A DNA stretch of 64,000 nucleotides from Escherichia coli (GCF_003790525.1 NZ_CP033635.1); one strand, 5' to 3'. Numbered from the stretch's first letter, positions 19,948 through 32,710 are shown. Numbers and translations: made by a program. Notes: a model not told the origin generated them from the sequence alone.

Positions 19948-19966
19948 TGGTGTCCCTGCAGAAATC
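19948..19966 (+). repeat. attR-like imperfect direct repeat of the argW 3' end; distal boundary of the satellite element
   Basis: TGGTGTCCCTGCAGAAATC versus TGGTGTCCCCTGCAGGAATC at 32636-32655. Same orientation, 2 differences. Confidence 0.65.
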
Positions 19967-20115
19967 ATCTTAATTATTATTATGTTGATTTATATGTAGT
20001 TTATTTTTGATTTTTTGTTTTTGTACCCGTTTTGTGCCCGTTTTATTCGATTCCCAATTTAAACTTCGATTCTAGAAAGGTGAGTAGGGGAGGTTATCAT
20101 TTCATGTATCATTAT

Positions 20116-20159
20116 TGTAGACACAGAATAATTACTCGCCTATCCTCACTGTAGACACA
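20116..20159 (+). promoter_or_regulatory. Direct repeats TGTAGACACA x2 in the TA promoter; probable antitoxin operator
   Basis: Copies at 20116-20125 and 20150-20159, spaced 34 bp, ending 25 bp upstream of the antitoxin ATG. Confidence 0.5.
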
Positions 20160-20183
20160 CAATAGATACAGGAGTTAACCCAC

Positions 20184-20432
20184 ATGCGCACACAGGTTGT
20201 ATTGCAAAAATGGGGTAATAGCATTGCCCTTCGACTAACGGGAAACCTTAAAACCGTTCCGGGGTTTTCAGTGGGTGATATCGTCAACGTTGAAATTAGT
20301 GAAAAGGGGCTTTTTGTAGAAAAGCCTGCACGCCGTCGCCTGAGTGAAGCCGAATTACTCGCCGGGATAACGCCAGTTACAGCGCACGCGGACGAAATTG
20401 CCACCCCATTCAATGAGGAGGTTGATTACTGA
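20184..20432 (+). CDS. MazE/PemI-family antitoxin (SpoVT/AbrB fold)
   Basis: 82 aa. N-terminal VVLQKWGNSIALRLTG swapped-hairpin motif. Stop overlaps the toxin start (TGATG). Confidence 0.8.
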   Translation: MRTQVVLQKWGNSIALRLTGNLKTVPGFSVGDIVNVEISEKGLFVEKPARRRLSEAELLAGITPVTAHADEIATPFNEEVDY

Positions 20433-20776
20433 TGTTTGTACCTAAGCGTGGTGATATTTGCTGGCTGGATTTTGAGCCGCAGAAAGGAAAAGAGAGCGGA
20501 AAGTATCGCCCGGCACTCATACTATCCCATGAGCAATATAACCGACTCACCGGGCTTGTCATATGCTGCCCCATAAGTACGAGCATACGAAATGCTCCCA
20601 CAGAAGTTCCGGTAACAAATCTGGACGCCCCCAGCGTGGTAGCAACCACACTCATTCAAACCCTTGACTGGCGTCAGCGGAAAGCGCGCTTAATCACAGA
20701 GGCAGAAGATGGGGTATTTAATGATGTGCTTGAAAGAGTCATTACCCTGATTGGTGGAGAGCATCTGCTTAAGTAA
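20432..20776 (+). CDS. MazF/PemK-family endoribonuclease toxin
   Basis: 114 aa. KRGDICWLDFEPQKGKESGKYRPALIL matches the PemK/MazF N-terminal signature (ERGEIWLVSLDPTAGHEQQGTRPVLIV in PemK). Confidence 0.8.
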   Translation: MFVPKRGDICWLDFEPQKGKESGKYRPALILSHEQYNRLTGLVICCPISTSIRNAPTEVPVTNLDAPSVVATTLIQTLDWRQRKARLITEAEDGVFNDVLERVITLIGGEHLLK

Positions 20777-20819
20777 AAGGAGGGCTGAGAAGCCCTCAAC
20801 GTTACCAGAAATTTCCTTG

Positions 20820-30362: not shown

Positions 30363-30584
30363 TTAAGCCTGAAAACGTTGTTGTTTTCTTTCTTCTATCC
30401 AGTCGATAATTTCCTCTTCAACCCATGCAACCGCGCGAGGGCCTATTTTTATTGGTTTGGGGAATATATCAGATTTTATATCTTCGTAAATTCGAGCTCT
30501 TGATCTCCCTGTGATTTCAATGACTCTGGGGAGTCTTATTAATTTTTGAATCCGCCTTTCGCTGGTCTGTGAGTATGCTGACAT
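30363..30584 (-). CDS. alpA: AlpA-family phage transcriptional regulator (MerR-like HTH/excisionase-like)
   Basis: 73 aa. RLPRVIEITGRSRARIYEDIKSDIFPKPIKIGPRAVAWVEEEI is the AlpA/prophage CP4-57 regulator signature. Confidence 0.8.
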   Translation of the reverse strand: MSAYSQTSERRIQKLIRLPRVIEITGRSRARIYEDIKSDIFPKPIKIGPRAVAWVEEEIIDWIEERKQQRFQA

Positions 30585-31112
30585 ATTGGCCTCCTGTATA
30601 TGCTGACATTTTACGTTAGCTCACAGCGGGAGCATGTAAGATCTCGCGGTCGTCTGCGGGACGAGAAAAATCATAAACAACGAAAAGCGGATTTGTAAAT
30701 CAGGTCGATTTTCAGGCGGGGTTGACATGGACAGTGAGATTTGTTCCATGTGTGCAATATACATTTTAGGACCACTTTAAGCCACTTTAAACCGCCAGAA
30801 AGCGACAAAGAATAACAAGTTAGTGCCAGAAAGGTTTGCTGACTTACCCTTTTAGGTACCAGAAAAAGCCCTTTCAGGTCGGTGTAATGCTTGTGAACGC
30901 TGAAATAGTGGTTTCTGAAAACAAAAAAAGAATTGAAAATGTGATAAATATCACAAAATAATATCGATAAAATAGTTTGATTTTTTTGTTTTTATTAAAA
31001 GCACTGGTTAATTGTAAAAAATTAATTATAAATCAAATGGATATATCTGTTTTTTTAGGGTAAAAATCACTAGGTGCTTTTAGCAGTATCTTATTCTATT
31101 GATTTTAAAAGA

Positions 31113-31147
31113 TAAAAAAATCGGCGTGTCCACATATTGTCCACGCC
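31113..31147 (-). terminator. Rho-independent terminator of the P4-type int gene
   Basis: Hairpin GGCGTG...CACGCC followed on the minus strand by a T8 run. Confidence 0.55.
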
Positions 31148-31194
31148 TTGAGTTTAATTCAGCCGCTTGGGATAGTTTAGTTTGTTGAGTTGAT

Positions 31195-32457
31195 TCAGTC
31201 TGTTTCGTTAGTCCATTTAAAATCATAGGGGGAAATATATGCCGCCTTGCAGGTGTCGAGATAATCAGCCCACCATTGCAACATTCGGCGGCGTTCCTGC
31301 ATATGTTCAGCTCTGTGAACGTATGCAGCCCGGACACTGCCTCTTTCCCTGTGACTCATCTGAAGCTCAACGGCTTCTCTTGTCCACCTGCCTGACTCTG
31401 TCAGCGCCGAACAGGCCATGGTCCTGAATCCGTGACCACAAATATCTTTTTTTGTGTCGTATCCCATGTGGCGTAATGCCTTGTTAATGGTGTTTTCGCT
31501 CATTGGTTTTATCTGGTAATGGTCGCTGGGGAAAATAAACACTTCATCACCGGATATATTTCTTATATCGTCAAGAAGCTGCATGGCCTGAGTGGGTAAA
31601 GGGATGGCGTGAGGGGTTCCCATTTTCGTTCCACGATATGAATATTTTACGCCTTCTATTTTTTCGCGTTCTGCTGGTATTACCCACATTGATTTATCAA
31701 AGTCAATTTCATTCCAACGAGCAAAACGCAATTCACTTGAGCGAATAAAAATTAATAAATTTAATTTTAGTGCAAATTGCGTTAATAACCGTCCATTCAT
31801 CTTATGGTGGTAATCATTTATTTTGCCAAGTAATTCAGGTAATCGCTCAAGGGGAAGAGCGGGGCGATGTTTGGTTTTATTAGTTTCGATTGCACCGTTC
31901 AGTTCCTGCGCTGGATTGTATTTAATCATTCCATTCTGTACAGCGTAGCGCATAATGGCGTTCATTCGCTGCTTGTTACGTGATGCTGTCTCAAGCACTC
32001 CTTTGTCTTCCATTTTGCGTAAAGGAATCAGTAGATCCATGGTTGTGATCTCGTTAATTGGCCTTTTACCAAGAATGGGGAAGATGTGGTTTTCCAGGTC
32101 TTTTAAGACTTTTTGCGCGTGCAATTCGCTCCAGCCCTTTTTCCGGCTGTGCCATTCTCTGGCAACGTCTTCAAAAAGCACTATTTGAGGTTTTGGTGTG
32201 TGCAGTGGGTCAATGCCTTTAGCCAGGCTCGCCAGATATTCATCACGAGCGTTCCTTGCCTGTGCAAGTGTTACGGCAGGATAAATGCCTAAAGCTCGGG
32301 TCGTTTCTTTACCGTTGATAACCTTGCGAAAGCGCCAGTATTTTGAGCCGTTGGGGTGAACATAGAGATACAGGCCTTTCCCGTCACGAAGTTTTTTAAT
32401 TTTATTGTTGTCCTTATCTGGTTTGGCGTTACGTACAGCTATATCAGTCAGTTTCAT
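31195..32457 (-). CDS. P4-type tyrosine integrase (DUF4102 arm-binding + catalytic domain)
   Basis: Start chosen at MKLTDIAVRNAKP. Catalytic motifs GHGFRTMA and MSHRERGSVRAAYVHR. Directly adjacent to the 3' end of argW. Confidence 0.9.
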   Translation of the reverse strand: MKLTDIAVRNAKPDKDNNKIKKLRDGKGLYLYVHPNGSKYWRFRKVINGKETTRALGIYPAVTLAQARNARDEYLASLAKGIDPLHTPKPQIVLFEDVAREWHSRKKGWSELHAQKVLKDLENHIFPILGKRPINEITTMDLLIPLRKMEDKGVLETASRNKQRMNAIMRYAVQNGMIKYNPAQELNGAIETNKTKHRPALPLERLPELLGKINDYHHKMNGRLLTQFALKLNLLIFIRSSELRFARWNEIDFDKSMWVIPAEREKIEGVKYSYRGTKMGTPHAIPLPTQAMQLLDDIRNISGDEVFIFPSDHYQIKPMSENTINKALRHMGYDTKKDICGHGFRTMACSALTESGRWTREAVELQMSHRERGSVRAAYVHRAEHMQERRRMLQWWADYLDTCKAAYISPYDFKWTNETD

Positions 32458-32635
32458 TATGTTGATCCTCCAGACGGGTACAAATAAAAATCGAACCAAG
32501 CATACCCGCTTTTATACCCATTTTAATATGGGCTTCAGGCAAATTTAACGAGAGAAAATGAGACAATGGGAGATGTTTAACTCATTGAAAGTAAATGGAT
32601 AATGGTTTTTTCTGAGAGGTTGCAAGAAGTTGCGA

Positions 32636-32710
32636 TGGTGTCCCCTGCAGGAATCGAACCTGCAATTAGCCCTTAGGAGGGGCTCGTTATATCCATTTAA
32701 CTAAGAGGAC
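32636..32710 (-). tRNA. argW: tRNA-Arg (CCU anticodon)
   Basis: Reverse complement gives GTCCTCTTAGTTAAATGGATATAACGAGCCCCTCCTAAGGGCTAATTGCAGGTTCGATTCCTGCAGGGGACACCA, with anticodon loop CT-CCT-AA. Confidence 0.9.

Follow-up and report, generated by a model that had tools for sequence, protein, structure and literature searches.

The window analysed here, 64,000 nucleotides of Escherichia coli DNA (GCF_003790525.1, NZ_CP033635.1), carries an inserted element of 12,688 bp at positions 19948–32635, at the 3' end of the arginine tRNA gene argW. This element is likely an intact integrated satellite of a distinct family, related to P4 yet separate from it, whose helper would be a P88-like peduovirus. 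Its late region contains a homologue of the P2-family major capsid protein, a candidate external scaffold resembling P4 Sid, an Ogr/Delta-type late activator and a cos region of the P88 type (Table 1). A preliminary description of the same DNA, made from the sequence alone, had proposed a helper-dependent satellite at argW. This proposal is supported. Pfam and PHROG scans of the window open reading frames (ORFs) found no portal, terminase, protease, tail or lysis genes in the element. The features it named, namely int, alpA, small ORFs, a primase-helicase, a second recombinase, iterons, Ogr/Delta and cargo, are also present. The stretch taken for cargo was assigned correctly only for the MazEF-like pair; the rest encodes the late operon (Sid-like and capsid proteins), which lies within 20820–23821 together with a ribbon-helix-helix (RHH)-like gene and cos.

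Capsid and Sid-like genes of the late operon

The element had been described as lacking capsid genes. Its 423-amino acid (aa) late protein is, however, a P2-family capsid homologue, 34% identical to P2 gpN (over residues 3–340), 35% to the P88 major capsid protein and 36–39% to those of 186 and PSP3. Consistently, its AlphaFold model matched gpN of the P4 procapsid 7jw1 (Foldseek E 6e-27, TM 0.75–0.79) and was nearer to gpN than to the capsid protein of EcCI2 (E 6e-9), a capsid-forming phage-inducible chromosomal island (cf-PICI). Against the gpN equivalog model TIGR01551, the protein scored 135 bits, below the cut-off of 219.65. Relative to gpN it has about 85 additional N-terminal residues that are predicted to be helical, and both the gpN-aligned N-terminal region (gpN residues 3–31) and the maturation site (..VEP..) are kept. 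The extension resembles none of gpO, gpM, gpL and the Sid-like protein, nor any other head protein, and the idea that a scaffold domain of gpO had been fused here was dropped.

Related proteins of 393–497 aa from Escherichia, Salmonella, Klebsiella, Erwinia, Pectobacterium and other genera form a satellite capsid clade, whose members score 262–904 bits as compared with at most 200 for true phage proteins. When 19 satellite-type and 20 phage-type proteins were placed in a neighbour-joining tree, this clade was monophyletic in 100 of 100 bootstraps, with a mean identity of 51% within it versus 34% to the phage proteins. The clade is old. The ratio of nonsynonymous to synonymous substitution rates (dN/dS) was 0.08–0.10 for the capsid gene against two orthologues and about 0.3 for the Sid-like gene. 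Both genes are under purifying selection, which contradicts the earlier suggestion of a degenerate element. Across the clade the N-terminal extensions vary, with about 60 to 160 extra residues and, in some members, long Ser/Pro-rich repeats. Three cysteines are invariant in the clade, C252 (EDCGVGWL), C312 (AVCS) and C414; P2 gpN lacks the first of these and reads QDVAVGWL there.

The start of the capsid ORF overlaps the stop of an ORF encoding a 236-aa protein. For this protein Pfam, PHROG and NCBIfam returned only spurious coiled-coil matches, and BLASTP against P4 Sid, P2 gpO and P88 gpO gave nothing significant. Its predicted model (pLDDT 83) shows a long helical hairpin and small C-terminal helices, and the C-terminus carries a PSPxQ...LAEGxExC motif. 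Among 350,542 chains searched with Foldseek, P4 Sid was the top match (E 0.15, probability 0.92). Alignment of a 17-member family profile with Sid by hhalign gave the same register (columns 49–141 versus Sid 52–144; E 4.8e-4), the motif W..A.G..[TS][ED]E is common to the family and Sid, and hmmsearch placed Sid third among 177,635 PDB sequences. Psu showed no relationship to the family (hhalign E 0.19). The family is small: an exhaustive HMMER search of 1.84 billion proteins yielded 18 clusters, all of about 240 aa, and reached no Sid or Psu, and two word-index protein searches returned few members. These lines, individually weak, are consistent both among themselves and with the gene neighbourhood, and the 236-aa protein is probably a remote Sid homologue. 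Of sid, psu and epsilon, none of which had been obvious in the element, psu and epsilon are indeed absent (no element ORF matched P4 Psu by blastp or Pfam, or P4 epsilon at E ≤ 1), whereas sid is probably there in this diverged form.

A capsid homologue of this kind need not build a shell by itself. It could be a size-redirecting or poisoning subunit that co-assembles with helper gpN, for example in pentons, or mainly an anti-helper interference factor. Ccm of SaPIbov5 is a precedent: this homologue of the helper capsid protein sits in the pentamers of T=4 procapsids and sets the small T=4 size (PMC8569155). The retained gpN core fold, gpN 3–31-aligned region and maturation site would suit co-assembly, as would the invariant clade-specific differences and the long, variable N-terminal extension. 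The co-evolving, translationally coupled Sid-like partner, however, fits a self-contained shell at least equally, and we regard a chimeric shell or an interference role as rather unlikely, although it deserves serious consideration.

Late control, cos region and candidate helper

The preliminary description was right that a late-gene activator is kept, as the single-domain zinc-finger protein of 60 aa belongs to the Ogr/Delta type. Ogr and Delta recognize the pattern TGT-N12-ACA at P2 and P4 late promoters. A candidate dyad of this type lies upstream of the operon encoding the Sid-like and capsid proteins; the aligned dyad in relatives is TTGTTGT-N12-ACAACAA, and P4 Psid has TGT-N12-ACA. Between this dyad and ogr, a divergent ORF for a 77-aa RHH-like protein is kept at 32–41% identity in 14 of 16 satellite-type loci (described below), and the only family match it gave was a weak one to ORF56 copy-control proteins. 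Nine of the 20 window copies of TGTAWTACA (GTAATAC core) fall in 22813–23888. In relatives the motif occupies two fixed places, one some 60–70 bp ahead of the cos block, the other at the late promoter and ribosome-binding site of the sid-like gene, and it is essentially missing from phage-type loci. TGTAWTACA/GTAATAC may be the operator of the 77-aa RHH-like protein, which would tie packaging to late expression. Individual occurrences of TGTAWTACA were recorded at 22812–22910, 23195–23203 and 23881–23889 of the window, at 8161–9256 of relative L007 and in relatives L017–L023.

A cos site had been suggested within 19948–20183 or 22800–23250. The first of these intervals contains only the promoter of the toxin–antitoxin pair, with its TGTAGACACA repeats, and the second holds the late promoter and the RHH-like gene. 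The 19-mer of the P2/P4 cos was not found in the element at up to three mismatches, and blastn-short searches with the P4 and P2 cos regions returned only 8–11-nt noise from it. Comparison with relatives in Klebsiella, Salmonella and another E. coli site revealed a single conserved non-coding block, 23676–23821. It contains TGCACAA three times in tandem (23820–23794) and a fourth time at 23728–23722, and by eye 13 of 19 positions in the G-rich part of its core agree with the P2 cohesive end. The block is about 81% identical to a non-coding stretch of Escherichia phage P88 and its relatives, located just outside the portal gene, the place of cos in P2-like genomes. In deposited linear records of related phages, the block lies within the first 300 bp (500465-2) or is interrupted by the record's break (P884B11). 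An nhmmer model of the block detected all 16 satellite-type loci, always 300–450 bp upstream of ogr, and, next to the portal gene, all four P88-like phage loci of enterobacteria; P2-like loci of other orders gave no match. The ends of packaged DNA would be expected inside 23662–23821, near GGTGACGGGGGAACAGCC. In relatives, RefSeq/PGAP annotates a 90-aa hypothetical protein on the minus strand that corresponds to 23647–23919 and overlaps the block. Because the conserved repeats and G-rich core are shared with non-coding phage DNA, this ORF is doubtful and probably not a gene.

Of 5,426 complete E. coli genomes, 1,124 (21%) have portal and terminase genes of the P88 type, and 1,152 have the cos block. 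Strain P13-6 (NZ_CP080223) harbours both a P88-like prophage, at 1.22 Mb, and a satellite whose body is that of the window element, at 3.98 Mb, and their cos blocks are 81% identical. Given the cos homology and this co-residence, the helper is most likely a P88-type peduovirus (Xuanwuvirus/Gemsvirus type) rather than P2.

The late region also bears on whether the element could be a Gram-negative PICI of the EcCICFT073 type that is mobilized by a lambdoid helper. Its int, alpA, pri-rep and origin layout, its specific att sites and its length of 12.7 kb, within the usual range of about 10–15 kb, do resemble E. coli PICIs (PMC6092414). Those islands, however, have lambdoid helpers, redirect packaging by an Rpp-type protein, for which no dedicated search was made here, and have no phage structural genes, whereas here the late functions are all of the P2/P88 type, from Ogr/Delta and the TGT-N12-ACA promoter to the gpN-like capsid protein, the Sid-like protein and the P88-type cos. 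We therefore consider a lambdoid-helper PICI very improbable, and a P4-related satellite with a P88-type helper remains our preferred assignment.

Insertion site and relatives of the element

The sole tRNA called in the window by ARAGORN was argW, tRNA-Arg(CCT). An ungapped search allowing three mismatches found TGGTGTCCCTGCAGAAATC once, at 19948–19966, and TGGTGTCCCCTGCAGGAATC at 32637–32656 is the 3' end of argW. The two copies are separated by a 1-nt indel (an extra C) and one G/A substitution, which is why this search missed the second one. A synthetic empty junction, in which 19348–19947 was joined to 32636–33235, was contiguous in 186 complete E. coli genomes at a coverage of at least 80% of the query, and at least 12 of the matches listed, including SMS-3-5, were 100% identical. 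Conversely, at least 80% of the element is present in 19 genomes, in which similarity begins at window positions 19941–19948. This left boundary is kept despite different neighbours, upaE/ompH in GF60 and dsdC in HNSQ2209. The insertion into the 3' end of argW is thus precise, and its boundaries are not due to chance. An element of about 12.7 kb flanked by real att sites had been claimed earlier on the basis of the imperfect 19-bp repeat, and the empty junctions bear this out; the concern that the repeat might be coincidental is answered by the boundary shared across different flanks. The position given for the repeat was exact at 19948, whereas the argW copy starts at 32637 and not at 32636.

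The left flank at 11019–19510 encodes a phase-variable autotransporter of 2,637 aa (UpaE in GF60) and an OmpH-like protein. Because dsdC directly abuts the satellite in other strains, this flank is in its turn a strain-variable insertion between dsdC and argW. The GF60 copy of the element, which is 99.3% identical, carries istA/istB of the IS21 family between ogr and the cos block (L001, 9648–11955), an insertion that the window copy lacks.

To place the element among its relatives, we used 16 satellite-type loci collected from the contexts of distant capsid homologues and from a scan of one genome per species. These loci come from eight genera, namely Escherichia, Salmonella, Klebsiella (several species), Enterobacter, Kluyvera, Izhakiella, Erwinia (E. 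dacicola) and Apirhabdus. Genes for ogr and the capsid homologue are present in all 16 loci, and the RHH-like and Sid-like genes are detectable by tblastn in 14; the other two (L009 and L010) fall below the tblastn threshold, yet have a 237-aa Sid-like protein (19% identity) and a 59-aa ORF in the same positions. Portal, large terminase, gpO and small terminase genes were found in none of the 16. Among the 15 phage-type loci, in contrast, the satellite genes are missing throughout, and all four of these phage genes are present except in one short contig that is truncated on either side.

The satellite-type loci differ among themselves in their modules for replicase, regulator, integrase and cargo. 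Essentially the same body, from the toxin–antitoxin genes to the Icd-like ORF at about 96% identity, lies between hpt and gcd in E. coli MIN10 and P13-6 (L039 and L041), with a different integrase, an extra gene for 350 aa and a different helix-turn-helix regulator. That the same body carries another integrase at this site shows that integration modules are swapped. A Salmonella relative occupies the same hpt/can site.

A further locus, L020, is a metagenome contig of 12,723 bp (QAKE01000006.1) binned as a Bacillota bacterium, probably wrongly. It has an exact terminal direct repeat of 507 bp and thus represents a circular or concatemeric copy of 12,207 bp, which suggests that a free or packaged form of the satellite exists in nature. 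Its gene order (cos, ogr, RHH, sid-like, capsid, int, AlpA, Ash, primase, recombinase) is the one expected of the window element circularized at att.

These comparisons leave little room for a decayed P2-like prophage that happens to have kept ogr and the capsid gene together with cos. Relatives in peduoviruses, as expected of such a remnant, do exist for these three and for the primase, but the same compact gene set of about 12 kb turns up in eight enterobacterial genera, free of fragments of portal, terminase, gpO or terS genes. In addition, the capsid clade is monophyletic and only 34% identical to the phage proteins, the genes are under purifying selection, one copy is circular and of unit length, the att sites are exact, and empty sites exist. 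A remnant is therefore the least credible of the explanations considered, and the data favour an intact satellite.

Other modules and comparison with known systems

Outside the late region, the element contains integration, early and replication modules (Table 1). Both predicted RNAs lie inside an Icd-like ORF (29282–29809), whose product has a C-terminal Icd-like domain (NF033153, E 3e-14). The primase had been called alpha-like, but it aligns with P4 alpha only at the Walker A and toprim motifs (E 2e-4), and its orthologues are in phage and prophage records. Among phages, Escherichia phage ESSI2_ev239 comes closest (51%), followed by prophage-type phage records of Ralstonia (44%); records of Pseudomonas phages were matched as well. 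By sequence, the protein is a primase of the phiCTX/RSA1-like phage type and a functional analogue, not an orthologue, of P4 alpha. The gene for the second recombinase directly follows the primase gene in most, but not all, relatives; the Salmonella relative has a HicAB pair instead. This enzyme may serve multimer resolution or a second integration system, and its gene is followed by a terminator-like hairpin at about 24557–24582. The iteron GGTTACA occurs 18 times in the window against 6.9 expected, and 13 of the 18 copies are at the origin. Beside att, the slot occupied here by the toxin–antitoxin pair holds UDG, Hok or a toxin–antitoxin pair in the opposite orientation in relatives. Just upstream of the mazE-like gene, TGTAGACACA occurs twice, in 29-nt direct repeats at 20107–20169; these repeats are probably the operator of the toxin–antitoxin promoter.

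Table 1 Features of the element at argW, in window coordinates
Feature	Coordinates	Strand	Evidence or remarks
Distal att	19948–19966	+	19-nt imperfect copy of the argW 3' end; compare 32637–32656
MazE-like antitoxin	20184–20432	+	Variable slot beside att; pair matched by PF02452, phrog_1936 and phrog_4324
PemK/MazF toxin	20432–20776	+	Toxin–antitoxin pair; PF02452 E 1e-24; phrog_1936, phrog_4324
P2-family major capsid protein homologue, 423 aa	20820–22091	-	PF05125 E 2e-73, 247.7 bits (cut-off 27); phrog_70 E 2e-77
Sid-like protein, 236 aa, helical hairpin	22091–22801	-	Candidate external capsid-size scaffold
Candidate Ogr/Delta-dependent late promoter dyad	22873–22895	-	TTGT-N12-AGAACAA, upstream of the sid-like/capsid operon
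Small divergent ORF, 77 aa	22966–23199	+	RHH-like by eye; candidate regulator; annotated in relatives
Ogr/Delta-type zinc-finger late activator, 60 aa, single domain	23250–23432	-	PF04606 E 2e-11; 39% and 31% identity to the P4 Delta halves
Predicted cos region, P88-type peduovirus	23662–23821 (about)	-	Four TGCACAA repeats; invariant G-rich core GCGCGCAGGTGACGGGGGAACAGCCC at 23679–23704
Predicted replication origin	24063–24344		13 GGTTACA iterons, both orientations, in 282 bp; AT-rich stretch at about 24262–24328
Second tyrosine recombinase	24612–25652	-	Int_N PF24624 E 5e-24; Phage_integrase PF00589 E 9e-20; weak Xer-like NCBIfam matches
Primase-helicase, 889–897 aa	25619–28312	-	Zn ribbon, Toprim, DUF927/D5-like NTPase; phrog_1139 E 2e-297; Toprim Pfam matches
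Four small early-operon ORFs	28337–29292	-	No family match; none resembling P4 epsilon
C4/CI-type antisense RNA	29507–29594	-	Rfam RF01695, 74.6 bits (gathering 45)
isrK-like RNA	29620–29701	-	Rfam RF01394, 50.6 bits (gathering 50)
AlpA/Vis-type regulator or excisionase	30363–30584	-	PF05930 E 5.5e-17; 34% identity to P4 Orf88/Vis
P4-type tyrosine integrase, 420 aa	31195–32457	-	Arm-DNA-bind_3, Phage_int_M, Phage_integrase; 53% identity to P4 Int, E 7e-155
argW tRNA-Arg(CCT)	32636–32710	-	3' 20 nt (32637–32656) form the proximal att core

P4-like satellites are the natural class for comparison (de Sousa & Rocha, PMC8628076; PMC10085698). In common with P4 it has integration at a tRNA 3' end by a P4-type integrase, AlpA/Vis, Ogr/Delta, a C4/CI-type RNA, a primase-helicase together with an octamer-like iteron origin, a Sid-like late operon behind a TGT-N12-ACA-type promoter, and a cos-containing genome about one third the size of a peduovirus helper. 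It differs in lacking psu and epsilon, in having a Delta that is a single 60-aa Ogr-like domain at its own position, in the order of modules and the position of attP, in its P88-type cos and in a primase that is not an alpha orthologue, and it adds its own gpN-like capsid protein, a small RHH-like protein and a second recombinase. The P4 order is int, hotspot, cos, psu-delta-sid, alpA, cI, eps, alpha; the preliminary description had taken the element to follow the P4 plan, but only alpA, the C4 RNA and the replicase operon are collinear with P4. The P4-like model of SatelliteFinder needs most of seven components (PMC10085698), of which three are recognizable by sequence here, the integrase, AlpA and Delta; Psu, epsilon, alpha and the P2/P4 cos and order are lacking, and the Sid component has weak matches only (Foldseek E 0.15; hhalign E 4.8e-4).

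The element might still be a classic, possibly degenerate P4-like satellite, in which Sid and Psu remodel the helper capsid and the att-side region is mere cargo. The P4-type integrase with 53% identity, AlpA/Vis, Ogr/Delta, the C4/CI RNA, the iteron origin, the length of about 12.7 kb and the Sid-like fold are all as this explanation predicts. It is at odds with the lack of psu, epsilon and an alpha orthologue, the gene order unlike that of P4, the missing P2/P4 cos 19-mer and a conserved capsid gene under purifying selection in the late operon, and at most three or four of the seven SatelliteFinder components are recognizable (PMC10085698). The explanation is thus already largely refuted. 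We judge a classic P4-like satellite improbable compared with a separate, P4-related family.

Other satellites that encode capsid proteins resemble the element in part. SaPIbov5 with its Ccm and PmCI172, whose capsid homologue makes small capsids (PMC6092414), likewise have one homologue of the helper capsid protein, no portal or terminase, and cos packaging by the helper terminase. Their host phyla, helper families (the siphovirus phi12 and a Mu-like phage, respectively) and families of capsid protein are, however, unrelated to those of the element, and they have neither a Sid-like external scaffold nor Ogr/Delta control.

The cf-PICIs carry the genes of a complete head (capsid, protease, portal, connectors and TerS), and tails are all they take. 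The element shares with them a satellite-encoded capsid protein of the HK97 fold, but in the window and in the 16 loci it has only the capsid protein and the scaffold instead of a full head module. From P88-like peduoviruses (Xuanwuvirus, Gemsvirus), with which it shares the cos region at about 81% and the P2-family capsid fold, it is set apart by a capsid protein only 35% identical and by its gene content, as these are complete phages of 33–37 kb with portal, terminase, gpO, tail and lysis genes. An element with no portal, terminase, scaffold/protease, tail or lysis genes is not a Peduoviridae prophage. Its ogr-type activator and late-promoter logic, which we compared with those of P2 and P4, are typical of peduoviruses.

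Together, these data suggest how the satellite would operate. The C4-type RNA would hold the early operon silent until helper induction or infection, upon which Int and AlpA would excise the element and replication would start from the iteron origin, with the second recombinase perhaps resolving multimers. Ogr of the satellite or of the helper would then activate the TGT-N12-ACA-type late promoter, and the satellite capsid protein and Sid-like scaffold would assemble small capsids on the helper portal, with about one third of the helper volume (12.7 kb against the 35.8 kb of P88, a ratio equal to that between P4 and P2); the shell may consist of satellite capsid protein alone or be a chimera with helper gpN, as with Ccm of SaPIbov5. 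The helper gpO protease would cleave the long N-terminal pro-region of the capsid protein at the conserved VEP site (near ...SSE|VEP), the helper terminase would package the DNA via the P88-type cos, and helper tails would finish the particle.

Several points weigh against this model and against the assignment to a P88-dependent satellite family. Excision, packaging and small capsids are predicted here from the genes alone. The cos was located by homology, to a region rather than to a cleavage site, and the window contains no helper prophage. Each line connecting the 236-aa protein to Sid is weak alone (12–18% identity, Foldseek E 0.15, hhalign probability 32%), and helical hairpins are prone to spurious structural matches. 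The late-promoter dyad of the window departs at one position from that of relatives (AGA for ACA), a search of the element ORFs gave no epsilon-like anti-repressor, and the IS21 insertion in GF60 means that some copies are damaged.

P4 and P2 are the textbook case of capsid-size piracy, in which Sid of P4 reshapes the helper's own capsid protein. In open-access papers and bioRxiv we found no description of a gpN-like or P2-family capsid gene in a satellite of the P2/P4 type. Our results raise the possibility, which we put forward tentatively and with slightly less than even confidence, of a widespread and unnamed family of peduovirus satellites, intermediate between P4 and cf-PICIs, in which a matched pair of Sid-like and gpN-like proteins builds small capsids on the portal of a P88-type helper. 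A P4-like detection model would miss such a family for want of psu, epsilon and alpha and of a sid recognizable by sequence, which would explain islands probably overlooked by current satellite finders. The system lends itself to testing, as 21% of complete E. coli genomes carry portal and terminase genes of the candidate helper's type and natural satellite/helper pairs exist in sequenced strains. The variable att-side cargo (toxin–antitoxin pairs, UDG and Hok) points to the family as a vehicle for gene transfer in Enterobacterales. If the proposal is true, the matched pair would offer a possible route round sir-type capsid mutations by which helpers resist Sid, and a capsid gene of its own in a P4-related family would alter the view of satellite evolution, linking the strategies of P4, SaPI Ccm and the cf-PICI head module.

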